Part shown: piece after piece, positions 6,069 to 34,418 of the stretch
Position numbering within the stretch: the first letter of the stretch is position 1
Layout of the letters: each line of letters opens with the position of its first letter
NCBI GenBank assembly: GCA_903842025.1
Contig: CAIMKX010000048.1
Span: 1-56,202, forward strand
Source: an uncultured bacterium
Lineage (GTDB): Bacteria; Patescibacteriota; Minisyncoccia; Phycocordibacterales; PALSA-1337
Length of the DNA stretch: 56,202 bases
Reading direction: 5' to 3'
The notes under the pieces: generated by a model
What the model was told of the DNA's origin: nothing
Seen by the model: the letters and a program-made list of their open reading frames with translations, nothing else
Database searches by the model: none
Program-made: the position numbers and the translations under genes

Positions 6069-7973
6069 TCAAATCTCTAGCATCTTGAGCAAGGCTGACA
6101 TTTTGACCGTGGCGACTCCAATGACACTGTCGGCCGCGCCGTAATACATGTAGGCGATTGGGCCTTTAACCACCAGGCCGCAAGGGAAAACGACATTGGC
6201 CACGATGCCTTTGTGCTCATATTCAGTCTCGGGCTCGAAAAGCGGAACCGCCGTACGGGCTTTGACGATCGTTGGGTCGAGAAGATCGAGAAGGACGGCA
6301 CCGACCCTATATGTAGTGCTCCAGGAAACACCGTGATAGAGGAGAAGCCAGCCGGCCTTGGTCTTGACGGGAGGCGCGGATATGCCGACTTTCCCGCCAT
6401 CCCACATGCCGCGTCTCGGCGCGATGATTTCGATGCTCTGGGTAATCTTTTCCTTGGAAAAATCCAACGATGACAAGAAGTCCGCGCAGACGCTTTCGTT
6501 CACGCGATGGAAGATCATATAGCCATCCTTGATCTTCTCGGGAAGGATGCAGGAATCCTTGTTGGGTATGCCGGCTGGCGTAATGGCTTCCGGGGAGCTC
6601 CAGGAGCTCCAGCGTTTCTTGACGAATTCTGAAGTGGTGATGGAACTGACGGCCACGCGCGGGGTCGTGCCGTCGTAGCCCGTGTAGGTCATGTAAAGCT
6701 TCTTATCGATCTCCACCAGGCGCGGGTCCTCACAGCCGCAATTGGAATTGGAACCATTGGCGTTCAATTCAAACGAGGCTCTCGGAAAATAAACCGGTTT
6801 GTCCAGTCTGACGTCTATCGAAAAGCCGTCCGATGTCGAGGCGTATCCCAAGGTGGAGACGTTGTCAGAGGAAACAGCGCGGTAAAGCAGGTGCGTCGTG
6901 CCGTTAATTCCGATGGCCGCCGGATTGATCGTCCCGCGAGCTTCCCAACCCATTCCCGGCCGGGGAGTGATGATCGGATTGCCGGGGAATCTCGTGACGT
7001 AGGATTTGTTTTTTTCAACCAGACTGCCAAGCAGGTTGTCGAGTGGGATCGTCGCCATGGCACAATGAGTATCCGCGCCGCCGTAGTAAACTTCCAGGTG
7101 TTCATTCCTGATCAGGGCGCCGGAAGGGAATATGACGTGGCCGACATTGCCGACATTCTCGTAATAGGCATCAGGAGCCATGAACGGCCCCTTGGTCCGC
7201 CCGATGATATGCCGAGGATTATCTCGATCAAGCAGAAGGACTTCTATGCCGAAAACTTGGCCGGACTGGCCGTAGCGCTGGATGTGGGAATAAACCACCA
7301 AATAGCCCTTGTCTGTCTTGACCGGCGCGGCTCCAAGCTCGATGTGATCATCCGGTAATCTGCGTATATGAAGTTTGTGGGCGTCGACGTTCTCTGTCCA
7401 GGCGTTCCAATATTCCGGCGACCAGATGTCTTCAGGACGGTCAAATTCGGCATAGCAGATATCCGAAGGTTTGCGGTCGGTGTTGATGGTGAGAAGGGCG
7501 GCCATTTTGCCATTGATCTTTTCCGGAAACATACCCATAGCCTTGGCGTTGAAAGGCGTGACCAAATGCTTTTCGGTTATCGTCTCCAGATCCTTGCTCA
7601 AAGCCACTGCCACCTTGATGGTATCGACGGAAAAAGGATAGCCGCCCAAAGCGGTGTAGAAAATGTAATACGTGTCACCAACCTTGGTGACACGCGGGTC
7701 TTCACATCCGAAATAGTCGAACTCTCGGTCCGGTCTTATCAGAACCTTCCTGTTCTCGAAGTGAAAGCCATCGGTCGAATCAGCCCGGGCAATGACGGAA
7801 GTGCTGATATGGGGATCGCGCAGCATGTCAGGCTCGGACATCGCCCGATAGACCATGACGGTTTTTTTGCCTTGAACGATCGGACAACCGTTGAAGGCCG
7901 CCGCGGCCTCCCAGGGATGCTCCTTGACCGGCGAGAGAAGGGGATTGTGCTCTGATCTGGTGAGTGTGAACAT
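6069..7973 (-). CDS. Tandem double GH130-like (beta-mannoside phosphorylase family) protein
   Basis: 634 aa with two repeated modules. Each carries GCEDPR (GCEDPRVTKVGDTYYIFYTA and GCEDPRLVEIDKKLYMTYTGYDG) and YYGAAD/YYGGAD-type C-terminal motifs. Confidence 0.7.
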   Translation of the reverse strand: MFTLTRSEHNPLLSPVKEHPWEAAAAFNGCPIVQGKKTVMVYRAMSEPDMLRDPHISTSVIARADSTDGFHFENRKVLIRPDREFDYFGCEDPRVTKVGDTYYIFYTALGGYPFSVDTIKVAVALSKDLETITEKHLVTPFNAKAMGMFPEKINGKMAALLTINTDRKPSDICYAEFDRPEDIWSPEYWNAWTENVDAHKLHIRRLPDDHIELGAAPVKTDKGYLVVYSHIQRYGQSGQVFGIEVLLLDRDNPRHIIGRTKGPFMAPDAYYENVGNVGHVIFPSGALIRNEHLEVYYGGADTHCAMATIPLDNLLGSLVEKNKSYVTRFPGNPIITPRPGMGWEARGTINPAAIGINGTTHLLYRAVSSDNVSTLGYASTSDGFSIDVRLDKPVYFPRASFELNANGSNSNCGCEDPRLVEIDKKLYMTYTGYDGTTPRVAVSSITTSEFVKKRWSSWSSPEAITPAGIPNKDSCILPEKIKDGYMIFHRVNESVCADFLSSLDFSKEKITQSIEIIAPRRGMWDGGKVGISAPPVKTKAGWLLLYHGVSWSTTYRVGAVLLDLLDPTIVKARTAVPLFEPETEYEHKGIVANVVFPCGLVVKGPIAYMYYGAADSVIGVATVKMSALLKMLEI

Positions 7974-14352: not shown

Positions 14353-14527
14353 CAATATTCTAAATTCTCGTGGAGCAGATATATTTTGGATAGACATATA
14401 GACATAAAGAGGGGAGTTCTGTAATCATTAGCGGCAGCGCTAATCTTCTGTATTGAAGCAATGTCGCACAATAGAAACTTATACGACACAAAGGGAAATT
14501 TACGAATCTTTTCTTATGGAAAAGTTA

Positions 14528-22723: not shown

Positions 22724-23257
22724 TTACCGGCACTCAAAGAGCATTGGCTGATCTTTTTCAACACCACTCCGTCTTCCACTATAAACCCATTCAACATCGA
22801 GGATTTCTCCACGATGAGGTGTGATTTTAAATACCGCGCTGGGACAACCCATGCCACTGATAAATTTATCTCCTGTCTGGCATTCAATGGAAGACATGTA
22901 GACCCACCATGTCTGACTAAGATATTCTGAAGGAATCTGAGCCCTAACCTCCTCGAAATTCATTGCCAATCTTACTGGTGTAGCGTCAGAACAGATTGTC
23001 AAGCCGTTCTTTTTAGCTATATCATCTGGTGTCCAAGGATATATGGCCACATCGTAGCCAAACTCATCAGCCATGGCGATTCTGAGGGTGACTTGATTCC
23101 CGATGGTGTTACAGAAGTAACTGTTGCGAATCGCCCTCATTACACTATCATTTTTTGCGAACTTATCTTCAGCGTCCTTTAGAAACTTACTAAAAGTCCC
23201 CTTGAATGCTGGGATTTCAATTCTGACCTCCCGACGAGATATTATACATGTTTTCAT
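22724..23257 (-). CDS. Hypothetical protein (177 aa), monocistronic orphan
   Basis: The ORF is bounded by terminators on both sides. No motif recognised. Confidence 0.5.
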   Translation of the reverse strand: MKTCIISRREVRIEIPAFKGTFSKFLKDAEDKFAKNDSVMRAIRNSYFCNTIGNQVTLRIAMADEFGYDVAIYPWTPDDIAKKNGLTICSDATPVRLAMNFEEVRAQIPSEYLSQTWWVYMSSIECQTGDKFISGMGCPSAVFKITPHRGEILDVEWVYSGRRSGVEKDQPMLFECR

Positions 23258-23385
23258 TGTGATAAAGCCTTTCTATTTAAAACATTACATGAATGTTAGT
23301 AATATGTCTAGAACACAATAAATAAAGAATAATAGCTCAATGTTTGCTAGGAAATAGCTAAAGTATGCTATAGTAGGGGTCATTA

Positions 23386-23412
23386 GAAAACGCCGGCCTG
23401 TACGGCGTTTTC
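23386..23412. terminator. Bidirectional rho-independent terminator
   Basis: aaaacgccg-gcctgta-cggcgtttt, with A/T runs on both sides. Confidence 0.75.
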
Positions 23413-23433
23413 CTTTGTCTAAAGTTTATATTG

Positions 23434-24054
23434 CTATTTCACCAAACACACCTGATTATGCATATTCCAGATAAGATCTGATACGACGAATGAGTTTTCA
23501 GCGTTACTTGTTAACAGATTACCGATGATTCTTTTATATTCGATCAAACTATCCATTTGGGCTTCTTGTGCAGTTCTGCCTTTGATCAGCGAGAGTGGTA
23601 CCTGATTTGAAGTTTCAAAAAATGGTTTAGCATATTCATCTTTTAATGGTTCTGTGACGAGAGCTTTATCTGTCCAGAATCTGAATAATTCACTGTAACC
23701 AATGAAAGCTTTGCAACCCTCTTTTATCGCTTGTGGCCCGAGAGCTTTACCGGAATCGCATGAGCGCATATAGACGATCTTGTCCTTGAGGAGGTATGAA
23801 TTTTCACCTGATACTATGAGAGGTTCTTCGTCATGTCCAGTAACACAGACATCATTTCCGTGTCCATTGAAAATGGCAATTTCGGGATTTTGCTTTTCAA
23901 GATAGCTTTCCACAAGCTTACGCGAAGCTTTATCTTTTTCCAAATCAAAAACCTTGCCGATTCTGCGTTTTGCTTCTTTAACGATTTCTTCACTCCAATG
24001 ATAGAAATAGTGAGTGACTGATTCGTATCTGGGACGAGTGATTAGTAGTGACAT
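23434..24054 (-). CDS. Minimal clan-CD-like (caspase/legumain-like) putative cysteine protease fold protein
   Basis: 206 aa. A hydrophobic strand followed by His-Gly (IAIFNGHGND), and a second hydrophobic strand followed by Cys (IVYMRSCDSGK; compare legumain E-A-C-E-S-G). This spacing and order is typical of the clan CD His/Cys dyad. By-eye inference only. Confidence 0.45.
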   Translation of the reverse strand: MSLLITRPRYESVTHYFYHWSEEIVKEAKRRIGKVFDLEKDKASRKLVESYLEKQNPEIAIFNGHGNDVCVTGHDEEPLIVSGENSYLLKDKIVYMRSCDSGKALGPQAIKEGCKAFIGYSELFRFWTDKALVTEPLKDEYAKPFFETSNQVPLSLIKGRTAQEAQMDSLIEYKRIIGNLLTSNAENSFVVSDLIWNMHNQVCLVK

Positions 24055-24056
24055 AA

Positions 24057-24293
24057 TTATGCGACAGGTAAATCTCGAAGCGATCGGAGGAAGAATAACT
24101 GCGACTCAACAAGCTTCTTGCCGACCTCGGTTTGCTTTTTAACTTCTTCGATTAGTGAATCAACTGACATTGGCTCATTGTCTCCACCAACAGAGAGATT
24201 GGCATTCGAAGGTATAGTCTTCAAACGAGCAACAACCAAATTGATAATTTCTTGGTTTAATTCTTTTGAATTGTTAGTTATAGTTTTGCTCAT
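24057..24293 (-). CDS. Hypothetical small protein (78 aa), paralog of 24297-24491
   Basis: Shares a P-x-[ST]-x(11)-TE[VL]GKK[LI][VL]E block with the upstream 64-aa ORF. Only a 2-3 nt gap to each neighbouring gene. Confidence 0.55.
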   Translation of the reverse strand: MSKTITNNSKELNQEIINLVVARLKTIPSNANLSVGGDNEPMSVDSLIEEVKKQTEVGKKLVESQLFFLRSLRDLPVA

Positions 24294-24296
24294 AAT

Positions 24297-24491
24297 TTAT
24301 TCAGTAGGTATGAATTTAAGTTCAACGAGTTTCTCAAGTATCTTTTTACCAAGCTCAGTGTCAGCATTAATCTCTCTGTAAGCGACTTCCCACGTAATAG
24401 GACCACCTTGATTTTCACCCAAGTCTAATACTATCTCCTTGCGAATGTTCATAGGCAGATTAGCGTAGAATTTGAAAAATTTATCTTTCAT
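24297..24491 (-). CDS. Hypothetical small protein (64 aa), first gene of the 3-gene operon
   Basis: The ORF is preceded by an extended -10 promoter. Paralogous to the 78-aa ORF. Confidence 0.55.
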   Translation of the reverse strand: MKDKFFKFYANLPMNIRKEIVLDLGENQGGPITWEVAYREINADTELGKKILEKLVELKFIPTE

Positions 24492-24611: not shown

Positions 24612-24654
24612 CGGGTCTAGTGATTATAGATTAGCACATATTTATAATTCATAC

Positions 24655-24839
24655 GATGCTCTGTGCAGGAGGCGAGGATTTGACGAGGGTCAGGGGTCGG
24701 ATAGCCCTGTATTTTCCATTTTTTAATTACTCGTATAGTCACCTCGCAAGATCGTCCCGTGGACAAGCACACCACTCGTCCCGGCCCAACTTTAAGTGTG
24801 ATAAGCGGTTACTATTTCGCCACTCCTGCACGGAGCATC
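24655..24839 (+). ncRNA. Unclassified structured RNA (~185 nt) closed by a 17-bp terminal helix
   Basis: gatgctctgtgcaggag (24655-24671) pairs with ctcctgcacggagcatc (24823-24839). The single non-Watson-Crick position is G-U only on the plus strand. Further helices: gcgagg/cctcgc, caggg/ccctg, gtcc/ggac, cacac/gtgtg. It is a GC-rich island in AT-rich surroundings, and translation of the overlapping ORF looks non-protein-like. Confidence 0.55.
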
Positions 24840-24858
24840 TTATGAAATTGTAAAAGAT

Positions 24859-25719
24859 CTATAGATACCTTTGAGCGTTAGCCAGCATTTCGTTCTTGTC
24901 GAAATTCAAATACATCAAGGCCGAATATGGACTAACGTGGCCTAGCATCATCTGAATATCTTTGAGATCGGCCCCGCTTGCCTTCATGCGGTGAGCTTTG
25001 GCATGTCGGAACATGTGCGGATGGATACGAGTTACGATGCCGGCTTCAGCGGCGATCTCTCTGGTCCAGCGTTCTACTGTTCTAGGTGTTATGCGTCCAC
25101 GGCCTTTATGATCGAGCGAAAGAAACAAATTTGGCTTTTGATTGAGGCAGATTCTACTACCGAGCCAACGAAGCAAGGTATCGTGATGAAAATCTTTGCC
25201 CCACATAATCCAGCGAGTATTCTTATTCTTCTTGTTCTCAATCGAGGTAAAGTTTTCGGTAGAAGATATTTGATTAACATTAAGATCACAAAGCTCGCCG
25301 ACACGAACACCTGTATCACGAAGAAGATGCAATATAGTGAGCTTTTGCAGATCATTTGTTTCCCACGGATTTAGGGTGGCGCACATTGCCTTGAAATCTT
25401 CATCACTCACACCTATACGAGGCTTTTTGGCGTATCTCGGTTCTTGAATGAGGAATGGATTGACCGATGATTCTTGAGTCGAATTGAGATAGCGGAAAAA
25501 ATTTTTCATGATCCGGCAGGAAAATGCTACAGTCGGCGGATTACATTTGGCAGAGAGGTGATGATTGAATTCGACGATGTCGCGATCGGTATATTCCTTC
25601 GTATCCTTATCTCTAAAATTACATAGGCGACGCAGGTATGGCTGATATATTTCTGCAGCCCGAGGACTGCGGATTACTTTCCAATCAGTATAATTTCTAA
25701 TTGCTTGCTGAATAGTCAT
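24859..25719 (-). CDS. Tyrosine recombinase / phage integrase family
   Basis: 286 aa. RDTGVRVGEL (box I Arg), HPHMFRHAKAHRM (HxxR), LGHVSPYSALMYL (His...Tyr). Confidence 0.85.
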   Translation of the reverse strand: MTIQQAIRNYTDWKVIRSPRAAEIYQPYLRRLCNFRDKDTKEYTDRDIVEFNHHLSAKCNPPTVAFSCRIMKNFFRYLNSTQESSVNPFLIQEPRYAKKPRIGVSDEDFKAMCATLNPWETNDLQKLTILHLLRDTGVRVGELCDLNVNQISSTENFTSIENKKNKNTRWIMWGKDFHHDTLLRWLGSRICLNQKPNLFLSLDHKGRGRITPRTVERWTREIAAEAGIVTRIHPHMFRHAKAHRMKASGADLKDIQMMLGHVSPYSALMYLNFDKNEMLANAQRYL

Positions 25720-25759
25720 GTGATTATTTTGTTATTTGTTAATTGATAATTCAGATAAA

Positions 25760-26557
25760 TTATTTGATCCTCGTATACCTTTTATAGACAGTCCAACCAG
25801 TCCATTTATTGAAGGGAAGTATGCAAGTTTCTTCGAGCCTATATTCGATGGAATCAGAACAGGTGAAATCGAGATCAGAGGGCGGGTTACGGATGGTTAT
25901 GGGTTTGAGAAGACCACGAGAAGTGAAGTAACATTTTTCGTTAAACAACCTTGCATCAACTACGCCTTTTTGAAGATATTTCGAGACATATGCACCTATC
26001 GATTGAATGTGTTGAATGGCATTTATTTTTATGAATCCGTGTGACCAAATTTCTGCTAACTCGTCATTGTTTATGTATGGCAGATTGAAGAAGACGGCGT
26101 GATAGTGAACAGCTCCTCGTTTCTGGAATTCGACGACAGAGACATATTTGAGCGCGTGTCCAATGTGATAATTCAGTCTCATCATGAATTTTCGCCACAT
26201 TTCGTTTGCTTCCTTGAGCCCGGTTATGTTTTCGGCAAAGGTGAACGTTACGAATTTATCGCTATATTCAGGATACTGACCGGAATTACAGGAGATTAGA
26301 CGGCGTATATGCTTCCTAGCGCGTGAGATTGAGAATGGACGACGAATACCTAGATTTCGCTTACCGACACGCTTCTTGCGACGATTTCGTGACTTCAACT
26401 GACCACCGAAATGGATGTCTTTTTCGAATTCATAGACTTCCTTGACGGGACCGGAGATGACAGCCTTGTATCTCGAGAAATCAACGCCCCAATGTATTTT
26501 TCTCAATTCGTCGAAAGCCCGACTTAGATCGTCTGCCGACGGAATCTGATTAGCCAT
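25760..26557 (-). CDS. Rolling-circle replication initiator (HUH endonuclease superfamily)
   Basis: 265 aa. Motif I-like KFVTFTF, HUH motif GAVHYHAVFF, motif III Tyr region GAYVSKYLQK. Confidence 0.7.
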   Translation of the reverse strand: MANQIPSADDLSRAFDELRKIHWGVDFSRYKAVISGPVKEVYEFEKDIHFGGQLKSRNRRKKRVGKRNLGIRRPFSISRARKHIRRLISCNSGQYPEYSDKFVTFTFAENITGLKEANEMWRKFMMRLNYHIGHALKYVSVVEFQKRGAVHYHAVFFNLPYINNDELAEIWSHGFIKINAIQHIQSIGAYVSKYLQKGVVDARLFNEKCYFTSRGLLKPITIRNPPSDLDFTCSDSIEYRLEETCILPFNKWTGWTVYKRYTRIK

Positions 26558-26618
26558 ACATATTTAATTCTAATAAATCTGATTAAGTGTGAGAGAGGTC
26601 GAGTCTAGAAACAACACT

Positions 26619-27398
26619 CTACCTCTTGAATTTTATAGCCGATATCCGGGCAGCTAAAGCAGCCCAGATCTCGGCGACTCGTAGCACATTTACTTCATAA
26701 GTTTCAGTTTTGATTGTTGTTGTACCTATCATATTTCCAATTTCACCCTTGATACCGACAGTCTCTTTGGTGTTGTACATTTTGAAGTATTTTGCTTCGC
26801 CCCAATATAGTCTCCTCGATAGCCGTTTTTCTTCATTGACTGTCTCGTCACCGGAGAGATCATATTCATCGCGGGCAAAAAGAGTGATAAATGGAATCAT
26901 GAATTTTTCGCAATGATAGAATACATTGGTCATTCCTCGCATGACAGCATGGACGGAAGTTGGGCGTTGAGTGGTGTAGAAGATCGAACGATCGAATTTG
27001 CGTGTTTGCAGAATATTCAAGCGTTGTGACATGGGCATTTTGGACATCTGATACGAATCGAACAGCACATATGCTTCATCTATAGCGACAATGCAATCTC
27101 GAAGTTTTCCGAACTCGTTATGCCAGTTTTCATCCGTTGGCATCTTACGGAGGTTAGTAGCCGGATACTTGATGAACTTTTTCTTTAGGCCAATCGCTCC
27201 CCAGAATATGGCGAAGGGATTTTGCCTTTGATCATAACCATCCCAATGGATAGTGAAATTTGTGTAGACCACATGCCCGTTATTCAAGAGCCGAAGAAGA
27301 TCTCGAACCATAGCGTATGTTTTACCTTGGCCTAGCCTACCGTAGTAGCAGTAAATGCCGTGCTCGATATCCATTCTTTTTGTCTTTATTTTGGACAT
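26619..27398 (-). CDS. Zot / pI-like P-loop NTPase (inovirus morphogenesis ATPase family)
   Basis: 259 aa. Walker A GRLGQGKTY near the N-terminus and Walker B IVAIDEA. Size and position are typical of a Zot-like N-terminal domain. Confidence 0.7.
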   Translation of the reverse strand: MSKIKTKRMDIEHGIYCYYGRLGQGKTYAMVRDLLRLLNNGHVVYTNFTIHWDGYDQRQNPFAIFWGAIGLKKKFIKYPATNLRKMPTDENWHNEFGKLRDCIVAIDEAYVLFDSYQMSKMPMSQRLNILQTRKFDRSIFYTTQRPTSVHAVMRGMTNVFYHCEKFMIPFITLFARDEYDLSGDETVNEEKRLSRRLYWGEAKYFKMYNTKETVGIKGEIGNMIGTTTIKTETYEVNVLRVAEIWAALAARISAIKFKR

Positions 27399-27433
27399 GA
27401 TGTTTAAATTAATTTGATAATATCGACCACCGA

Positions 27434-27700
27434 TTAACCGATTTCACTCTCGCGGATATAGGTAGAAATAAACTTTTCTGTAACATAACCTTTTGCGAAC
27501 ACATCTTCTATTTCGTTCGAAATAAGCTCAACGAGGACAGGGTTACCGATTTTATCCTCAAATCTATCAATAACCTCGAGGAGGTGATCATATAGATCCG
27601 GATCGATTCGGGCAGGCCACCAGTCTTTCCATATCTCTAAATTTCGCTCACATTCTTTTTTCGCTATCTCTTTATTCAGCATGATGATTTTGTTATTCAT
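27434..27700 (-). CDS. Hypothetical phage-module protein (88 aa)
   Basis: ORF whose ATG overlaps the stop of the upstream 67-aa ORF (ATGA). Confidence 0.5.
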   Translation of the reverse strand: MNNKIIMLNKEIAKKECERNLEIWKDWWPARIDPDLYDHLLEVIDRFEDKIGNPVLVELISNEIEDVFAKGYVTEKFISTYIRESEIG

Positions 27701-27900
27701 TTTTTTAATTTATTTAATCTTAATAATGACCACACTCTGCTTTGCATTATCTGAAGTAAGAAAAAATGATATGCAAACTGTTGTTGGAAATTCAGCTCGA
27801 AACCATGGCAATGACCGTCTTTTAGATGAGCGTGTATATCCTTTAAAATCGGGTCAGATTTCAGTAATGTTTCTATAATATTTTGATTGATTGTTTTCAT
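27697..27900 (-). CDS. Hypothetical phage-module protein (67 aa)
   Basis: ORF in the same co-oriented string. Confidence 0.45.
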   Translation of the reverse strand: MKTINQNIIETLLKSDPILKDIHAHLKDGHCHGFELNFQQQFAYHFFLLQIMQSRVWSLLRLNKLKK

Positions 27901-27935
27901 GTGATTATTTGTAATTAGTTGACTGCTAATATTTT

Positions 27936-28196
27936 TTAACCAGACCCTCGCAACTTATTGATAACCCAATTCACGAGCTGATATGTTTTGTATCCAAGCT
28001 CTATCCCGACACCGGCGAGCATAAATGTCATAGCTGTTCCGAGGAAAGGGAAGATGGTGGCCATCGCGCGGTAGTAGCCGAAGATCGTCGTAATCGTAGA
28101 ATCCAAATTGAGAGGAAGGGAAGTGACCTTTGGTAGAAAGCTCAATGCCCACGACATCGACTCCATAATGAATGAGATGAGAAGTGATGTAATCAT
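27936..28196 (-). CDS. Small multi-TM protein (pVI-like position)
   Basis: 86 aa with 2-3 hydrophobic segments. The start overlaps the stop of the 462-aa gene (ATGA). Confidence 0.5.
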   Translation of the reverse strand: MITSLLISFIMESMSWALSFLPKVTSLPLNLDSTITTIFGYYRAMATIFPFLGTAMTFMLAGVGIELGYKTYQLVNWVINKLRGSG

Positions 28197-29581
28197 GGTT
28201 TGATTTTGTTAAAGGCGAATTTCCATAGCCAGAAAAAGAAGCCAGCACCCATGAGTAGACTGATCATGTTGCTGATTGACGTCCACGCATTACCCCAATA
28301 ACCGTGAGACGTCGAGGATGCCATCAAGGACCAATCAATGAATGTGATTGTTTTGCCTTTGAAGATTTGCGTAGAGGATGCGTTGTAGAGAGGGTTTGAG
28401 TTGTTCGGAAAAGTAATCGAAAGGTTTGCGCTCGATAGGGATGTCGTAGAAGCAGTAGAATAACCTGAAATGTCATTTGCAATGAGGAATATATAACCCC
28501 ATGGAGCTTTATATTTCAGATCATTATACTGCTCCTGAAAACGGAGGCGAGTATACATATCCGGGACGAAGAGTAGATAGATTACATTTTTGAACACGGT
28601 GCCGACAGCACAGCCGATACCAGATGCCGTGAGCATCGAATCGCAATCGCTTAAGCCGGTCGTGATCGTTATCGGCGTAGAAGTAGCAGGGAAGTACAGG
28701 CTCAATGACGACAGCGGGGTGATTGTCTTATTGACTATGAATTCGCTTGAAGTGGCAACATAAACGTTCGGAGAGTTATCAAACAAGATAGACATGTGAT
28801 AACGGCCATCGGCCAATGCCCCGGTTGTAGTTGAGTAAGTATAGTTTCCACTTACAGTTGGAACAGTACCGAAATTATATTCGGAGTAATTACCGTTATC
28901 GGTATCGAGTAGCGTGATTAGCAAATTCGGAGTAGATGATCCAATATCGCTATCTATGTAATATGATCCGGACAAAGTGACAGGGGAGCTGATCGGCGTA
29001 ACAGTATATGCAGGTAAATATGAAGTGATCTGCGTTCCAATATAGCTAGGGTATCCGTCGGTAACCGCAAAATATATGTCGGATATGCCAGAACATGCTC
29101 CGCCGCCGGTATAGTGATAGCACGCACCGTCTGCCCATTTATCAGTCGGCGATCCGTGAACTTTTTGAGTTTCTCCGTTACCCGGTGCGTAAAAATATAT
29201 AGTTACTCGCTTGCCGGTAACTGAAACAGCAGGCGACCATGTGGTTATAAGGTGTGTTGGGGTTGAATTAAGCGCCCAAGAGTTGCTGTATTTCACATTG
29301 GACATATCACCTATACAGGTGGCGGCATTTTCTGAACTAGGGCAGATATGAACCCTGTAGCGGGTGTTATTGATCATGTATCCACTCATGATCACATCTA
29401 CTGCGCCCATATTACCGACTAGATTCGTGCCGAGATCTTGGTATGTAGTACCCGAATTGGCATTGACCTGCACATACCCTGAAGAATCAGTTTGTGCGCC
29501 GAGAGTCATGGCGTATGTACCGGCTGGCAAAAACAGCAGGCTCATAAGAAAGATAAAACTGTAGTAGTAATATTTCTTCAT
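28193..29581 (-). CDS. Secreted Ser/Thr/Gly/Tyr-rich protein with a C-terminal TM anchor (pIII-like adsorption/minor coat candidate)
   Basis: 462 aa. Signal peptide MKKYYYYSFIFLMSLLFLPAGTYA and C-terminal LLMGAGFFFWLWKFAFNKIKP anchor. Confidence 0.55.
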   Translation of the reverse strand: MKKYYYYSFIFLMSLLFLPAGTYAMTLGAQTDSSGYVQVNANSGTTYQDLGTNLVGNMGAVDVIMSGYMINNTRYRVHICPSSENAATCIGDMSNVKYSNSWALNSTPTHLITTWSPAVSVTGKRVTIYFYAPGNGETQKVHGSPTDKWADGACYHYTGGGACSGISDIYFAVTDGYPSYIGTQITSYLPAYTVTPISSPVTLSGSYYIDSDIGSSTPNLLITLLDTDNGNYSEYNFGTVPTVSGNYTYSTTTGALADGRYHMSILFDNSPNVYVATSSEFIVNKTITPLSSLSLYFPATSTPITITTGLSDCDSMLTASGIGCAVGTVFKNVIYLLFVPDMYTRLRFQEQYNDLKYKAPWGYIFLIANDISGYSTASTTSLSSANLSITFPNNSNPLYNASSTQIFKGKTITFIDWSLMASSTSHGYWGNAWTSISNMISLLMGAGFFFWLWKFAFNKIKP

Positions 29582-29615
29582 GTGGTTATTAATAAATTGA
29601 TAATCGCACTGGGTT

Positions 29616-29783
29616 GGGTCAGTCTAGTCATAGCTAGAGCGTAATTTTTCCGAAATTTTGTAGTCAAGGTCGCTTCGCGATGTCCTACGCATTTTTTGTT
29701 TTATAAGGTGTAAAGACATCGCGAAGCTCTCTTGACAAAAAATTTCCTGAAAAATTATTGCTCTGCTATGACAAGCCTGACCC
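29616..29783. repeat. ~168-nt imperfect long hairpin (candidate ssDNA origin / packaging signal)
   Basis: Left arm gggtcagtctagtcatagctagagcgtaatttttccgaaattttgtagtcaaggtcgcttcgcgatgtc. It pairs along ~70 nt with the right arm gacatcgcgaagctctcttgac...gctatgacaagcctgaccc, with several mismatches and bulges. Confidence 0.85.
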
Positions 29784-29797
29784 TCCTACTAACCTGA

Positions 29798-29867
29798 TCG
29801 CGGGGACCGGAATCGAACCGGATGTCCGTAGAAAAGTAGCGTTCTATAGAGTTACCAAACCCCGCGG
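29798..29867 (-). other. Degenerate tRNA-like element (acceptor stem plus T arm intact, no canonical D or anticodon arms)
   Basis: The minus strand reads CGCGGGG...TCCGG-TTCGATT-CCGGT-CCCCGCG-A. The middle forms TAGAA/TTCTA with an 8-nt loop instead of a canonical anticodon arm. No CCA. Confidence 0.5.
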
Positions 29868-29980
29868 CTACAAAAGACCGGCTGTGTCGATAGTTCAGAA
29901 GGCCTTTTGGCTCAATTGGAGAGGACTAGCCTGATTCCACTTGAAGAGAGCGGAGAGACAGCGGCCTTACGCCGCGCGGA

Positions 29981-30166
29981 TCATTTGATACCGCCCACGT
30001 ATCTCTTTGCCTTATGCCAGAGCATAAAGACTGCGCCGAGGAGCAACATGGCTGGAACAACATACGGCAGGACGTCCAATACAAGAGTATTGACCTGACC
30101 GATGGTGTTATCCCAGATGAGATGCACACTGGCCAAAGAAATAGTGGTAGATGCAAGTGAGGTCAC
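29981..30166 (-). CDS. Major-coat-protein-like mini TM protein (pVIII-like)
   Basis: 61 aa: N-terminal leader-like segment, hydrophobic core VVPAMLLLGAVFMLW, basic tail HKAKRYVGGIK. A short hairpin follows the stop. Confidence 0.55.
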   Translation of the reverse strand: MTSLASTTISLASVHLIWDNTIGQVNTLVLDVLPYVVPAMLLLGAVFMLWHKAKRYVGGIK

Positions 30167-30237
30167 TATTTTAGCTACTTAAATTATGCTGATAATATCG
30201 ACCACGAATCGACAACTGGGCTTATTGACATTGCCAG

Positions 30238-30345
30238 TTAGCCGAAGTGGAAGAGTATCCGGAAAAGGCCGATCAGCATGTACGCGAACATTCCCAAGAC
30301 AACTGCGGACAGATACACTTGATATGCGTCAGAAAGGATATTCAT
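30238..30345 (-). CDS. 35-aa mini TM protein (below the ORF-track cutoff)
   Basis: Reads MNILSDAYQVYLSAVVLGMFAYMLIGLFRILFHFG*. Its ATG overlaps the stop of the upstream ORF (ATGA at 30345-30342). Confidence 0.45.
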   Translation of the reverse strand: MNILSDAYQVYLSAVVLGMFAYMLIGLFRILFHFG

Positions 30346-30506
30346 GAAAGGAAACGGAGAAGTTTAACGCCTTGTAATATCATCCAGTAGACGAATATCG
30401 GGACACCGATAGCGAGGGGCATGAGGAAGAAAGTCCACCAGAAAAGATCCACATAGGATGCGTTATCGATTGCTGGCTGTAATATCTGCATAAGTACTGG
30501 ATTCAT
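30342..30506 (-). CDS. 54-aa mini TM protein (internal start of the 109-aa ORF-track entry)
   Basis: MNPVLMQILQPAIDNASYVDLFWWTFFLMPLAIGVPIFVYWMILQGVKLLRFLS. The ATG at 30506 overlaps the stop of the 80-aa ORF (ATGA). Confidence 0.45.
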   Translation of the reverse strand: MNPVLMQILQPAIDNASYVDLFWWTFFLMPLAIGVPIFVYWMILQGVKLLRFLS

Positions 30507-30745
30507 AGTTTTGATTTCATTCCTAACGCTCCGAACAAAGTTGCGAAGAAAAATACTGCGAGAAAGAAAATAATTATTCCTAGACCGAAGATCATAGTGC
30601 CATCGTCGCGCACTGTAATAGGGGAGGCGAGAGACATGACTGGTTGTGTTGACGACGAGGTAACCGTACATGTTTGCTCAATCATTAGAGGCGGCTCATC
30701 GGTGTTATACAGGTTGTCACAGTGCCAGGAATTGATCATATTCAT
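30503..30745 (-). CDS. 80-aa protein with a C-terminal TM segment and short basic tail
   Basis: ...MIFGLGIIIFFLAVFFFATLFGALGMKSKL. The ATG overlaps the stop of the 60-aa ORF (ATGA). Confidence 0.5.
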   Translation of the reverse strand: MNMINSWHCDNLYNTDEPPLMIEQTCTVTSSSTQPVMSLASPITVRDDGTMIFGLGIIIFFLAVFFFATLFGALGMKSKL

Positions 30746-30924
30746 TCGTTATTCTTAATCTCATAGATCAGAACGACATGATCCATGTTTATAATGACCT
30801 GAGCGCCGTTATCCCGAACGATGGTGATGAAGTTACCGTCTATATCCTCGACAACACCTTGGAAGCAACTACTATTACCGTAGTATTTATTATCGAGAGC
30901 AAATATGTATCTATTTTTAAGCAT
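30742..30924 (-). CDS. 60-aa soluble beta-rich protein (occupies the position of an inovirus ssDNA-binding protein; speculative)
   Basis: ORF in the coupled string. No TM segment. Confidence 0.4.
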   Translation of the reverse strand: MLKNRYIFALDNKYYGNSSCFQGVVEDIDGNFITIVRDNGAQVIINMDHVVLIYEIKNNE

Positions 30925-30928
30925 GGTT

Positions 30929-31105
30929 TTAGGCTAACGAATAATTAAACATTCCTAACTTGATAGGCGACTCAACTCTCGGATTCTTCTCCATCCACGA
31001 ACTGCACTTTACGCAACAATTACCTTGTTCTCGATAACGCTTCTCGGTCATCTCTAACTTCTCTCGACAAACAGGGGACACATGGTAGACACAGTGATCT
31101 TTCAT
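30929..31105 (-). CDS. 58-aa Cys-rich (zinc-ribbon-like) protein, first gene of the string (below the ORF-track cutoff)
   Basis: Hand translation: MKDHCVYHVSPVCREKLEMTEKRYREQGNCCVKCSSWMEKNPRVESPIKLGMFNYSLA*. Cys at positions 5, 13, 30, 31 and 34. Confidence 0.45.
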   Translation of the reverse strand: MKDHCVYHVSPVCREKLEMTEKRYREQGNCCVKCSSWMEKNPRVESPIKLGMFNYSLA

Positions 31106-31332
31106 AGGTTTTATGAATTAACTGATAAACCCGTAGACAAAAACAACGAAGTGGCTAAGACTTCGTTGCTTCTGGTATACGAGATACTTCTGCTTACCGG
31201 AGTGACCGGCAGGGCAGAAACTATTTCATTGGCACAAACTAGCTAACCTTTCCAAGGATAGATTCGTAGGTGGGGCAGTGGCTTAACTGCTCAATAGTCT
31301 ATGTCGCACAATATATGTTTAGTACATATCCC

Positions 31333-31626: not shown

Positions 31627-32925
31627 CTATAGGAATGAAAGCGGATTGAGATAAGCGCTGAAGTCGGCGATCGGTATTATTGCGCCTTTGCAGTTGACGC
31701 TGTTGTCGAATTTTTTGATCTCGACGCCTTGGGTGGCATAAACGCCGAAGTGAAGATGTGGGCCAGTAGAGTATCCGGTATTGCCGCTATAAGCGATCTG
31801 CTGGCCAGTGGCGACTTCCTGGCCAATACTCACAGTTTGCAAGGATAAGTGGGCATAGAGAGTCGACAGGCCATTAGAGTGCTTGATCATGATCCATTGG
31901 CCGTATGAATAGCAACCCCTAACCAGATCCGTATTCCCTTCTCCAATAATAACGCCGGATAAGGCAGCTTTGACAGGCGTTCCTATTGAAGCACGGAAGT
32001 CGACTCCAGTATGGCCTTTGCCGTTGTAAATCTGCGGATTGGCGGTGGCAAAAGGTGTGTTGCCGAAATATTGGGTGATGAATATCTTATCAAGCGGCCA
32101 AGACAAGACACCCGATCCAGTATGCGGTATTGAAGTCGGATTGACCAGAATATGGAGCTGGGATTCATAGGAGTTGATTTCGTTTTGAAAAGCCGCTTCT
32201 TGAGCTTTCTTTTGGGCTAGAAGTTGTTTATAGGAAGCCTCGGACTGGTTGGTCTCCTTCAATAAAGCCGTCTGGGCTTTGGTCGTGGACAGGACGATGG
32301 CCCGCTGATCATTGAGTTGATTGTTCAGAGTAACCAGGTCTGTTTTGGCCTTTTGGCTGGATTTTTGATTGGCTTCGAGATCGCTTTTGAACTTTTCCAA
32401 AGAATTGATGTGGCCGTAAATATTGGCTTGAATAGTCCCAAGTCTTTCCAGTGAATCGAGAGTCTCCGAAATTGATTGGCCTGATAATATGATAGCCGGC
32501 ACGGATTGTTCGCTCATTTCATTCACAGTGAGAAATGCCTGCCTGATGATCCTCCGATCATCGGCTATGGAATTTTCCTGATTGGCAATATTAGAGCCAA
32601 GCCTCTCGATCTCAAGATTACGGGCGGCGATCTTATCTTGTGTCAAGGATATATTGGCTTCAAGTTTCTTCTTGGTCAGAGTTAAGGACTTTATCGTCGC
32701 CGTCAGAGTTAATGACTGCGAACCCAATGTATCAAGCTGTTTCTGGTAATCGGCGATTTCCTTCTCAAGATTGGCTATATCTTGATTACGCTGGTCGATT
32801 TTGGATTGAATTTCGGAGGCGGTTTGGGCGTGAGTCACAGGAGAGGTAAGAGGTAGGAGGTAGGAGATAAGAATTATAACGAGCAAAAGAAAGCCGTGTT
32901 TGTAATTGACTTTTTCATTTTTCAT
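31627..32925 (-). CDS. M23 family metallopeptidase with an N-terminal coiled coil (EnvC-like architecture)
   Basis: 432 aa. Signal peptide, long heptad-rich region, and M23 motifs HTGVDF and GNTGYSTGPHLHFGVY. Confidence 0.85.
   Translation of the reverse strand: MKNEKVNYKHGFLLLVIILISYLLPLTSPVTHAQTASEIQSKIDQRNQDIANLEKEIADYQKQLDTLGSQSLTLTATIKSLTLTKKKLEANISLTQDKIAARNLEIERLGSNIANQENSIADDRRIIRQAFLTVNEMSEQSVPAIILSGQSISETLDSLERLGTIQANIYGHINSLEKFKSDLEANQKSSQKAKTDLVTLNNQLNDQRAIVLSTTKAQTALLKETNQSEASYKQLLAQKKAQEAAFQNEINSYESQLHILVNPTSIPHTGSGVLSWPLDKIFITQYFGNTPFATANPQIYNGKGHTGVDFRASIGTPVKAALSGVIIGEGNTDLVRGCYSYGQWIMIKHSNGLSTLYAHLSLQTVSIGQEVATGQQIAYSGNTGYSTGPHLHFGVYATQGVEIKKFDNSVNCKGAIIPIADFSAYLNPLSFL
32844..32871. 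repeat. Heptamer array aggtaag/aggtagg/aggtagg/agataag (inside the M23 signal-peptide codons)
   Basis: Four tandem 7-mers, complementary to the array at 32936-32984. Confidence 0.85.
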
Positions 32926-32935
32926 AGATACTTTT

Positions 32936-32984
32936 CTTACCTCTTACCTCTTACCTCTTACCTCTTACTTCTTACCTCTTACTT
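32936..32984. repeat. Heptamer tandem array (cttacct x5 and cttactt x2, seven units in total)
   Basis: Seven consecutive 7-nt units. The array overlaps the gltX stop codon (32979-32981) and lies 11 nt upstream of the M23 start codon. Confidence 0.9.
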
Positions 32985-34418
32985 CAACTTCCCTATCGCT
33001 TTTTCAATTCTGGCCAAGGATTCAACCTTACCAAGTATGAAAGCCGACATGAAAGGATCTGGAGATTTTTCCTGGCCAGTCAGAGCGACCCGAAGAGGCC
33101 AGAGGACGTCTCCCCTGCCTTTGTCCTCGGCATATTTCCAGAGTGACTCTTTGATCGTTTCGGCGGTGAACTTATCGGTATCAATCGAAGTTAATGTTTC
33201 CTTGGCAAAAGCTAAATGTTTGGCTGCCTCTTCCCTGCTAGGATTTTTCTTCCAAAGAAGCATGTCAGCCAGATAATCAGATAATTCTCTTACAAAACCA
33301 AGTTCACTTCCCCTTTCGAACATTGGCCCAATTTCTCCAAAAGTCGAAACTTTTTCTCTGAGAAGTTGTCTGAGCCGTGCGTATTCATCTTTCATATCTG
33401 CCAACCATTCAGGGACAAAATTTTTGGAATGTTGGTCGAATTCGACGTCTGATAATTTATTGATATATTCCTTGTTGAACCAATTGAGCTTTTCGATGTC
33501 GAAAACAGCGCCACCCTTTTGTATCCTTTCAAGGGTAAACTCACTGATCAGTTCCGGGACATTCATGACCTCCTTATCTCTGGTCGGATGCCAGCCAAGT
33601 AAAGTCAAATAATTGAACAATGCTTCAGGCATATATCCTTCAGCTCTATACTCCAAAACATCTTTGGCTCCATCACGTTTGCCCAATTTCTTGGTCCTAT
33701 CATCGCGCAGGATCGGCGGTAAAGTAGCGAAAAGCGGAGGTTTAATGCCTAATGCGTCATAAAGGCTAAGGAATCTCGGGGTGCTGGAAATGAATTCATC
33801 TGCTCGAAAGACATGTGTTATACCCATTTCATAATCATCGATTATGTGAGCAAAATTGTAGGTCGGGAAACCGTCGCTCTTGATCAAAACAAAGTCATCC
33901 AAGGCGGCTTCTCCTGCTTCGAGATCGCCCCTTACAATATCATGCCATTTGTATTTCTTTATTTCCGAAACTTTGAGACGGAGAGGCTTAGTCCCATCCC
34001 ATTTTTGAAACGTTTCTGGTCGATGTTCCCGGTAAAGAAAGGGTTTTTTTTCAGCTTCTGCAGTTTTACGAAAAGCTTCAACTTCTTCTTTTGTGTATGG
34101 ATCCGGATAAGCCAAACCTTTCTTTTCTAGTTCCAAGGCATATTTCTTATATATCTCAAGTCTTTCTGACTGGATACAGGAGCCAAAAGGACCTGGTTTA
34201 TCTGGACCATAATTCCAATCAATGCCAAACCAAGAGAGTGCTTCTTTGATATGTTCGACAGATCCTGGCACCAATCTTTCCTGATCCGTGTCTTCAATGC
34301 GTAGAATGAACGTACCATCGTTCTTTTTGACCCAAAGATATGCAAATAGGGCCGTGCGAACACCGCCTATATGCATGAAGCCGGTCGGACTAGGCGCAAA
34401 CCTGGTAATGATTTTCAT
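32979..34418 (-). CDS. gltX: Glutamyl-tRNA synthetase
   Basis: 479 aa. RFAPSPTGFMHIGGVRTALF (HIGH) and KLGKRDG (KMSKS-like). Confidence 0.92.
   Translation of the reverse strand: MKIITRFAPSPTGFMHIGGVRTALFAYLWVKKNDGTFILRIEDTDQERLVPGSVEHIKEALSWFGIDWNYGPDKPGPFGSCIQSERLEIYKKYALELEKKGLAYPDPYTKEEVEAFRKTAEAEKKPFLYREHRPETFQKWDGTKPLRLKVSEIKKYKWHDIVRGDLEAGEAALDDFVLIKSDGFPTYNFAHIIDDYEMGITHVFRADEFISSTPRFLSLYDALGIKPPLFATLPPILRDDRTKKLGKRDGAKDVLEYRAEGYMPEALFNYLTLLGWHPTRDKEVMNVPELISEFTLERIQKGGAVFDIEKLNWFNKEYINKLSDVEFDQHSKNFVPEWLADMKDEYARLRQLLREKVSTFGEIGPMFERGSELGFVRELSDYLADMLLWKKNPSREEAAKHLAFAKETLTSIDTDKFTAETIKESLWKYAEDKGRGDVLWPLRVALTGQEKSPDPFMSAFILGKVESLARIEKAIGKLK

Follow-up and report, generated by a model that had tools for sequence, protein, structure and literature searches.

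The Candidate Phyla Radiation (CPR) is already counted among the host phyla of inoviruses in the main text of Roux et al. 2019 (PMC6813254). Here, we describe one such element on the 56,202-nt contig CAIMKX010000048.1 (assembly GCA_903842025.1); this whole stretch is called the window below, and all positions follow its forward strand. Sequence comparison identifies positions 24,648-31,316, with a probability of roughly 0.85, as a complete and precisely bounded prophage of 6.67 kb, belonging to an inovirus-type (Tubulavirales-like) filamentous phage whose host is a Paceibacterota-like CPR bacterium. Few viruses are known from CPR bacteria, and no virus of this kind is known in culture.

The closest described relatives are inoviruses predicted in CPR genomes and metagenomes (Roux et al. 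2019; IMG/VR uncultivated virus genomes 3300027815_000044, 3300025316_000245 and 2711768262_000001), which represent the same kind of element. Two IMG/VR loci, L009 and L010 (L-numbers denote related loci and contigs fetched from public assemblies, metagenomes and IMG/VR), have the same gene order as the window element and share with it 91% identity in the assembly ATPase pI, 86-87% in the replication initiator Rep, 79-81% in the integrase Int and 85-86% in the coat-like protein. The window copy differs from the IMG/VR relatives in its attachment protein (47-72%), in extra open reading frames (ORFs) of 67 and 88 aa and in a decayed tRNA. With CPR hosts reported in Roux et al. 2019 and relatives at 91% pI identity in IMG/VR, this kind of element is therefore already known and the present one is a further member; since the class has been described, what the window adds is the anatomy of the element rather than its existence.

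Among isolated phages, Thermus phage Zuza27 (PQ109074.1) is the only one with a detectably similar pI (assembly protein 26.5% identical over 57% of its length, 6e-4). Its circular genome of 6,680 bp runs from an endonuclease (Rep) through a single-stranded DNA-binding protein, two minor coat proteins, the major coat protein, the attachment protein and a minor coat protein to the assembly protein, which matches the window gene for gene and puts the attachment protein where the window has a 462-aa protein. Unlike the window element, Zuza27 carries a transposase instead of an Xer-like integrase, and its host belongs to another phylum. Ralstonia RSM-type inoviruses and Spiroplasma plectroviruses share the Rep family PF23343 with the window at ~27% identity; their pI was not detectably similar to the window pI in tblastn searches. 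RSM phages integrate by means of a serine recombinase.

The integrative mobile elements exploiting Xer (IMEX) offer a further comparison. The filamentous phages CTX-phi, VGJ-phi and Xanthomonas Cf/Lf integrate at dif with the host recombinases XerC and XerD and have no recombinase of their own. As in the window, these phages lie beside a 28-bp site of 11-6-11 layout, and several unrelated elements can occupy one site; the invariant centre and second arm of such a site are present at the left junction of the window element (~31,316, on the side of h91, a neighbouring 91-aa ORF). In contrast to these phages, the window element encodes its own Xer-like recombinase, and because of this it departs from one defining IMEX feature; nor was a second clean dif-like site found at its right junction (~24,648, on the integrase side). 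No discussion of Xer recombination, of a dif-type site or of a tRNA-like structure was found among the passages listed from the main text of Roux et al. 2019, and a literature search returned no paper combining 'dif site' and 'Patescibacteria'; the description of the dif-like site and of a tRNA-Leu-like element next to the integrase, both side findings of the sequence comparison, may be new.

Gene content and order of the prophage

All ORFs of the element lie on the minus strand in one unbroken, co-oriented string (window 24.8-31.1 kb; Table 1). On a circle, the genes begin with Rep and (Int), followed by two small soluble proteins of 58 and 60 aa, three mini-proteins with a transmembrane (TM) segment, a coat-like protein of 61 aa, the 462-aa protein, an 86-aa protein and pI. 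This is the canonical inovirus order of replication, structural and assembly genes. Taking the features by which inoviruses are recognized as in Roux et al. 2019, the element has a pI/Zot ATPase (PF05707 and phrog_197 above cut-off, with Walker motifs) and a single-TM coat-like protein of 30-90 aa among short co-oriented genes (61 aa; also 35, 54 and 80 aa). Its size of 6.67 kb compares with about 5-15 kb expected for a small circular inovirus genome; the relatives L003 and L016 are circular, and a circle of this exact element is not on record. All core ORFs are intact and their catalytic motifs are present.

Three enzymes could be assigned by profile searches of the element ORFs against Pfam, PHROG (phrog_) and NCBIfam. 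Int matches PF00589 (6.6e-27) and phrog_1 (1.7e-27) and aligns end to end with the NCBIfam models of XerA (5.8e-39), XerD (5e-33) and XerC (3e-31), every score staying under the equivalog cut-off; Int is therefore best described as Xer-like rather than as an arm-binding, lambda-type integrase. It is the sole tyrosine recombinase encoded in the window. Rep matches PF23343 (REP_ORF2-G2P, 2.3e-22) and phrog_3419 ('rolling circle DNA replication initiation', 1.4e-25) and displays HYH and YVSKY motifs; its closest phage matches in GenBank are a metagenomic 'bajarodino virus' inovirus (47%) and the Ralstonia RSM-type inoviruses (27%). The Zot/pI protein scores 33.3 bits against PF05707 (4.1e-8; cut-off 20.3) and 2.6e-10 against phrog_197, and has both a Walker A (GQGKT) and a Walker B motif (IVAIDEA). 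Gene callers favour a 251-aa version of this protein. It has 65 homologues in public assemblies, most of them already annotated with PF05707 and many on contigs of 4-7 kb; a PDB sequence search with Zot gave no match.

The structural proteins were approached by hydropathy and conservation, TM segments being called with a simple Kyte-Doolittle (KD) scan (19-aa window, KD >= 1.6), i.e. with a crude threshold and no dedicated predictor. The 61-aa candidate for the major coat protein has one TM segment (residues 28-46, KD 2.15) followed by the basic tail HKAKRYVGGIK, and is the best-conserved small protein, at 67-86% in all relatives including both circular genomes. The proteins of 35, 54 and 80 aa have one TM-like segment each and are conserved in relatives. 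The 462-aa protein combines a hydrophobic N-terminus with a C-terminal aromatic and basic tail (FFFWLWKFAF-KIKP); its N-terminal three quarters are only 29-47% identical between relatives, compared to 72% for the last 100 aa, as expected of a receptor-binding, pIII-like protein. The protein thus behaves like a candidate receptor-binding protein, while Pfam, PHROG and PDB searches gave no match. Between it and pI there is invariably the 86-aa protein with its TM-like segment; all relatives, the circular genomes among them, have kept it at 32-85% identity.

Two further pairs of small proteins complete the string. Those of 60 and 58 aa, 91-98% identical in L001, have no TM segment and no family or PDB match; from their position after Rep/Int, they are candidates for single-stranded DNA (ssDNA)-binding or regulatory roles. 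The 88- and 67-aa ORFs are missing in L005 and L009 and 45% identical in L001, with no Pfam or PHROG family matches.

An earlier note on this DNA had proposed a co-oriented minus-strand string of inovirus hallmarks, and every feature that it listed was recovered at the positions it gave: a tyrosine integrase at one end, an HUH Rep, a Zot/pI P-loop ATPase, a large protein with signal peptide and C-terminal anchor at the pIII position, a pVI-like membrane protein, several single-TM mini-proteins of 35-80 aa, among them a pVIII-like one with a basic tail, and a long imperfect hairpin. The profile searches that it recommended were significant for PF00589, PF23343 and PF05707, and its inovirus-like interpretation agrees with the Int, Rep and Zot matches in Pfam, PHROG and NCBIfam and with a canonical order as in Zuza27. 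An ORF of 109 aa is more plausibly a 54-aa gene (30342-30506) located after, and coupled to, the 80-aa gene. The note had also suggested a CPR-like host. The pI relatives in species-representative genomes lie in contigs labelled Candidatus Paceibacterota (pI 96%), an uncultured bin (91%), 'Saccharibacteria' (71%), Candidatus Taylorbacteria and Parcubacteria, Paceibacterota being filed by NCBI under the phylum Minisyncoccota; a CPR host is thus supported. Likewise, no element ORF matched a secretin family in the Pfam and PHROG profile searches, in line with the reported absence of a pIV gene. CPR cells are thought to be without an outer membrane, and for this reason no secretin would be needed.

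A number of observations nevertheless weigh against the identification as an inovirus prophage. The coat, pIII, pVI and minor-coat roles were assigned from size, TM pattern and position, with 0 profile or PDB matches. A clear TM segment is missing from Zot (KD stays below 1.6 in all 19-aa windows, and the C-terminal VLRVAEIWAALAARISAI is amphipathic only), so that the membrane anchor expected of an inovirus pI is not seen at this crude threshold. At the right junction, the dif-like sequence is degenerate (GCATCGTATGAA...TGTGCTAATC), with a TGTGC core and aberrant spacing, leaving a two-site IMEX picture incomplete. GC skew changes sign near 40 kb and not at the dif-like site, and is uninformative at the scale of the window. 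Finally, the search for this exact element as a circle or in excised form gave nothing: 14 of 14 contigs with an identical Int have it in the integrated state. Groundwater samples with the element include ERR4195937, ERR4194907 and SRR5754711.

The lack of profile support for the structural proteins and of a TM segment in Zot, together with the occurrence of the same Rep family in plasmids and microviruses, could also fit an element that is not a virus, namely an integrated rolling-circle plasmid or a non-viral Xer-type integrative element with an incidental Zot-like ATPase. Such an origin appears very improbable in view of the full canonical inovirus order, the coat-like 61-aa protein kept at 67-86% and the pIII-like protein with its variable N-terminus. 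Moreover, a pI-like ATPase accompanied by coat-like mini-ORFs is the very combination by which inoviruses are called in the main text of Roux et al. 2019.

Table 1. Features of the inovirus-type prophage and its junctions, in order of position in the window.
Feature	Positions	Strand	Basis or remark
Second dif-like site, GTGTCGTATAA-GTTTCTA-TTGTGCGACAT	14461-14488	-	same orientation as 31,301-31,329; 10 kb beyond right junction
Host-side copy of 13-bp imperfect direct repeat, GATTAGCACATAT; candidate recombination core	24629-24641		11/13 match to 31317-31329 (GTTTAGTACATAT)
tRNA-Leu-like structured element, ~200 nt	24648-24846	-	covariation, conservation
Xer-like tyrosine recombinase (Int), 286 aa	24859-25719	-	PF00589, phrog_1, NCBIfam
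HUH rolling-circle replication initiator (Rep), 265 aa	25760-26557	-	PF23343, phrog_3419
Zot/pI-like morphogenesis ATPase, 259 aa	26619-27398	-	PF05707, phrog_197
Two small soluble accessory ORFs, 88 + 67 aa (variable region)	27434-27900	-	no family matches
pVI-like small membrane protein, 86 aa	27936-28196	-	TM-like segment, position
Attachment-protein candidate in pIII position, 462 aa	28193-29581	-	signal-peptide-like N-terminus, C-terminal anchor
Long imperfect hairpin, ~140 nt	29630-29770		candidate packaging signal or complementary-strand origin
Degenerate tRNA-Val remnant, element-borne	29799-29866	-	homology to tRNA-Val of L005/L009
Conserved motif GAATCAGGCTAGTCCTC in small hairpin just downstream of coat gene	29921-29937	-	conservation in relatives
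Major-coat-protein candidate, 61 aa	29981-30166	-	one TM, basic C-terminal tail
Three small single-TM proteins, 35, 54 and 80 aa, in minor-coat (pVII/pIX-like) positions	30238-30745	-	TM-like segment each
Two small soluble proteins, 60 + 58 aa (58-aa Cys-rich)	30742-31105	-	no TM
Conserved non-coding leader of element	31106-31300	-	L001 homology
dif-like site at left junction	31301-31329	-	invariant half ATATAT+TGTGCGACAT (31301-31316) faces element; arm1 ATATGTACTAAAC (31317-31329) faces h91

Mobility of the element and its relatives

Free circular forms can be recognized in two relatives. The 5,903-bp contig L003 (circle of 5,873 bp) and the 6,669-bp contig L016 (circle of 6,639 bp) each have a 30-nt terminal overlap, as a k=31 assembly produces for a closed circle, and both are thus taken as closed circles. 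They encode Rep, the small ORFs, the coat-like protein (67-74%), the large protein, the pVI-like protein and pI in the same order and lack both Int and a dif motif. Free circular replicons thus form part of the lineage. As a side observation, a cargo gene with a Band_7/SPFH domain separates the small ORFs of L016 from its coat gene (L016:2132-3010).

Exchange between hosts is visible in L001. Its Rep is 97%, its Int 93% and its 58- and 60-aa proteins are 91-98% identical to those of the window (DNA 88%), while pI is at 71% and the attachment protein at 29%; the non-coding leader belongs to the conserved part (region 31320-30564, 88% DNA identity to L001 versus ~68% for host DNA). The host genes of L001 are only 42-69% identical to those of the window (M23 peptidase 65%, GltX 42%; DNA about 68%). 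On these sequence comparisons, the pattern is one of modular exchange between elements in diverged hosts.

The string recurs at the same place, after GltX-M23 and h91, in L001, L002, L005 and L006. This recurrence bears on a test named in the earlier note, in which a string conserved in synteny across related genomes, with no empty sites, would point to a host-fixed locus. The first half of this condition is seen, whereas all 11 of the 11 syntenic sites with at least 3 kb of flank opposite M23 are empty (0/11 carry Zot, Rep or Int), and circular relatives and discordant identities speak for mobility. The claim of a mobile rather than host-fixed element thus withstands the test, and the element is mobile. 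An empty site in the same strain was not found, all contigs with an identical h91 or Int being occupied.

A more serious alternative is a defective or domesticated prophage remnant that became fixed beside h91, is inherited vertically and no longer forms particles. The integrated state of the 14 identical-Int contigs, which come from several samples, speaks against current activity and would fit such a remnant, as would the decayed element-borne tRNA and the similar divergence between window and L005 of the element (79-91%) and of one comparable host gene (LivF, 86%). In addition, Int and the tRNA-like element are gone from L002 and L006, which occupy the same site; these two have host genes as immediate neighbours and appear decayed. 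Still, we regard a remnant as unlikely: the core ORFs are intact with their catalytic motifs, near-identical Rep/Int modules occur in a host with core genes only 42-69% identical, most syntenic sites are empty and circular relatives exist.

Ends, dif-like site and tRNA-Leu-like structure

DNA homology to L001, L004, L005 and L010 stops at 24,648-24,651 on the integrase side and starts at 31,316-31,320 on the other, with sharp breaks at both ends in four to six independent loci. The element therefore measures ~6.67 kb, including ~200 nt beyond the integrase gene. The earlier note had placed the ends at 24,859 and 31,313 and had found no att sites; homology to five related loci shifts the ends to about 24,648 and 31,316, and an att-type site, i.e. 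a dif-like half-site, is present at the left junction.

At this junction, the 16-mer ATATATTGTGCGACAT is exact in every occupied locus, even where the elements can no longer be aligned. In a scan of metagenome contigs, the 16-mer turned up in at least 120 stretches, of which about half resemble chance matches. The consensus drawn from 116 sites is ATGTCGYAAAA-GATATA-TTGTGCGACAT, a 28-bp sequence in which a 6-bp centre separates two inverted 11-bp arms, and the non-chance matches carry ATGTCG(C/T)AAAAG before the 16-mer. The same 11-6-11 layout characterizes dif and other Xer sites. In 36 of the 120 cases, the site follows an M23 peptidase homologue at a distance of no more than 3 kb downstream, usually with the same h376-GltX-M23(-h91) block at 35-80% identity, and the dif-like site adjoins the conserved h376-GltX-M23 block in dozens of diverged CPR contigs. 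Drift is seen in the host-side arm of the h91-bearing lineage (…GTGTACnnAAG/C), a variation that also covers the ATATGTACTAAAC of the window. With respect to copy number, for which a true dif should be unique, the metagenome contigs, including some of 100-600 kb, gave one stretch and one match each among the matches listed; the window itself holds a second, variant site. As GC skew does not place the terminus at the site, it is by inference that one would call it the chromosome's true dif.

The site is shared with other elements. In IMG/VR, it borders distant Zot-bearing elements (L151, L158, L166, L174; also L176), in L176 on both sides of a 5.1-kb Rep element, and a version with a degenerate first arm is found at the apparent attP or right junction of other distant Zot-bearing elements (L179, L145, L171). 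Two viral IMG/VR contigs of 34-38 kb, 3300035454_001042 (L149, L168) and 3300030406_002410 (L144, L177), contain the 16-mer twice each, in one of them with a copy at the very first bases. Larger, non-filamentous prophages may thus be bounded by the 16-mer as well, the upstream arm being non-canonical there and chance matches possible. A Logan contig with a related Int-bearing element begins 5 nt before the dif half-site (L015:1-21); this start looks like an assembly-graph branch and suggests heterogeneity exactly at the junction.

From the 16-mer at the junctions, the 11-6-11 consensus, the neighbours of the site and the other elements found there, we infer that the element integrates at the dif-like site through its own Xer-like recombinase. 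The presence of a recombinase of this type in the element supports the use of the site, as such enzymes act on such sites. The Int-less elements of L002 and L006, found at the same site, might rely on a host recombinase instead.

The ~200 nt between Int and the right junction can be folded into a tRNA-Leu-like structure whose 3' end is the end of the prophage. It comprises a closing stem of 21-25 bp, an acceptor-like stem of 7 bp, a D arm (TGGCGGAATAGTAAACGC) that we take to be close to the D arm of bacterial tRNA-Leu, a variable hairpin and a T arm. The T loop reads T + (GACTATACGAG…hairpin…CTCG) + TCAAAT, i.e. a canonical TTCAAAT split by an insertion of 60-80 nt. The structure is present in 5/5 Int-bearing relatives and in 0/4 Int-less ones. 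RNAalifold predicts 60 pairs, 18 of them compensatory; across six sequences, 94.6% of cells are paired compared to ~40% in slid controls, with double changes at 20 pairs versus 2-7. Conserved G-U pairs put the structure on the gene-sense strand, and no Rfam family matches it. A further, sixth copy (L073:2928-3101, minus strand; 56 bits, E about 2e-11) sits on the 40-kb contig Ga0172380_10001484, also in IMG/VR, among small ORFs of a large phage-like contig and beside a tRNA D-arm-like sequence; tblastn with Int gave no match in L073, and the first 9.5 kb of this locus hold no integrase-sized ORF. Candidate interpretations are a tRNA-like RNA and a structure in plus-strand ssDNA, and the structure would belong to the integration module.

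At the right junction, the element ends in GCATCGTATGAA, followed by TTATAA and ATATGTGCTAATC. The first of these resembles arm1 of the second dif-like site (GTGTCGTATAA), and ATATGTGCTAATC is an 11/13 direct repeat of the left-junction host arm, seen in this locus only and with a chance probability estimated at roughly 0.02-0.05. A clean dif-like site or a shared core was not found at the right junction across loci, and several alignments of this junction made by eye were discarded as over-interpretation of AT-rich sequence. Because the 11/13 repeat flanks the element exactly, a classical integrase acting on the 13-bp repeat ATATGTRCTAAWC is conceivable, with the dif-like site not used as such. 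Another form of this idea is that the folded ssDNA stem beside int acts as attP, in the manner of CTX-phi: a 25-bp stem has its base where the prophage ends, its two arms carry the arm-like end sequence as inverted copies, and the arrangement recalls the attP hairpin of CTX-phi. Either form seems unlikely to us. The repeat is confined to one locus and its left copy is simply arm1 of the dif-like site, while the stem covaries freely, so that structure rather than sequence is conserved, and the extra copy in L073 stands without an Int match or an integrase-sized ORF nearby.

Integration at the dif-like site would then proceed as follows. The circular replicative form would recombine with the 28-bp host site through the Xer-like recombinase, leaving the invariant half-site at the left junction and the arm-like end of the element, GCATCGTATGAA, at the right. 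The predicted attP junction reads …GAGCATCGTATGAA joined to ATATATTGTGCGACAT… (24,651 joined to 31,316). After excision, or during replication from the prophage, Rep would nick and copy the plus strand, and the small TM proteins and the coat protein would assemble on ssDNA at the membrane, driven by pI.

Going one step further, we tentatively suggest, at slightly less than even odds for both parts together, that two undescribed entities meet here. The 28-bp palindrome would be the dif of a large CPR clade and a landing pad shared by several unrelated inovirus lineages and larger prophages, in the window as a 16.8-kb array between the sites at 14,461 and 31,316. The tRNA-Leu-like element would be a structured RNA of a new, phage-borne class or else a fold of the plus-strand ssDNA, and may be connected with integration or with the priming of replication. 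In practical terms, a bounded prophage with a defined target would provide primers for junction PCR and a candidate receptor-binding protein, and a small self-integrating replicon could become a genetic tool for organisms that have almost none. The 28-bp site offers a practical means of locating prophages and islands in CPR genomes and, if it is the true dif, would also mark the replication terminus.

Other non-coding features and flanking genes

The ~140-nt hairpin has 43-nt arms that are 81% complementary. Its DNA fold energy is -37.4 kcal/mol, compared to -12.4 +/- 2.7 for shuffled sequences (z = -9.4; 0/200 shuffles as good). It hardly varies between the window, L005 and L009, its tip showing compensatory changes, and is missing from L001, L002, L003 and L015, which keep only a small post-coat hairpin with a ATCAGGCTWGYCCTC loop. 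Rfam searches of the hairpin and of the structure following int returned only spurious miRNA, snoRNA and lncRNA matches far under threshold. Being single-copy and confined to this element lineage, the hairpin is not a multi-copy miniature inverted-repeat transposable element, and a 31-aa ORF within it is spurious; a packaging or complementary-strand signal is its likeliest role. The nearby motif GAATCAGGCTAGTCCTC recurs with variants (ATCAGGCTWGYCCTC, in the loop) in every relative, the circular L003 among them, always in this position, and could be a nick site or a terminator.

The decayed tRNA is best understood from its relatives. At the homologous position, L005 and L009 have a tRNA-Val (GAC/TAC) that is called by ARAGORN and scores 49-51 bits, above the Rfam gathering score for tRNA. 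The window copy has kept the covarying acceptor and T stems and is otherwise decayed: it matches only the tRNA-Sec model, at 14 bits and under the RF00005 gathering score, and ARAGORN calls no tRNA. We also considered tRNA-targeted integration and rejected it, as the tRNA-like 3' end inside the element (29,798-29,819) is single-copy and belongs to this decayed, element-borne tRNA-Val rather than to an att fragment.

A role of h91 as an element gene was likewise discarded. It is always adjacent, but it diverges like host genes and is also found beside the dif-like site without inovirus genes, in many contigs and in L014. In L014, h91 (7380-7717) is inverted relative to M23 and the dif-like site when compared with the window, and in L005 it comes after LivF and not after M23, so that h91 always accompanies the site with variable orientation and neighbours.

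L014 also gives a view of the region between the two sites of the window. It reads L9 and L27 genes, a few genes, one dif-like site, h91 and M23; in comparison, the 16.8 kb between the two sites of the window consist of the inovirus, unknown genes at 22.7-24.5 kb and a Liv ABC-transporter operon, and GC is lower (0.34-0.44) across window positions 14-25 kb. The genes between the prophage and the Liv operon (22724-24491, minus strand) number four (64, 78, 206 and 177 aa) and have no Pfam matches. In L125, three of the four occur at 98%, 87% and 89% identity beside a dif-like site without an inovirus, where h91 is only 45% identical, and they may belong to another dif-associated mobile element.

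Further observations concern the flanks. On the other side of the prophage, the window has tandem 7-nt repeats (TCTTACC) with inverted copies (AGAGGTAAGAGG…) at 32842-32985, which form a 47-nt inverted repeat between GltX and M23. Directly beyond the integrase-side end of related prophages, there is a DUF3800-V RNA (RF02964, 76-77 bits) with a terminator (L001:13109-13204, L005:12773-12868); this RNA is absent from the window, and in L001 a gene for a DUF3800 protein comes next.

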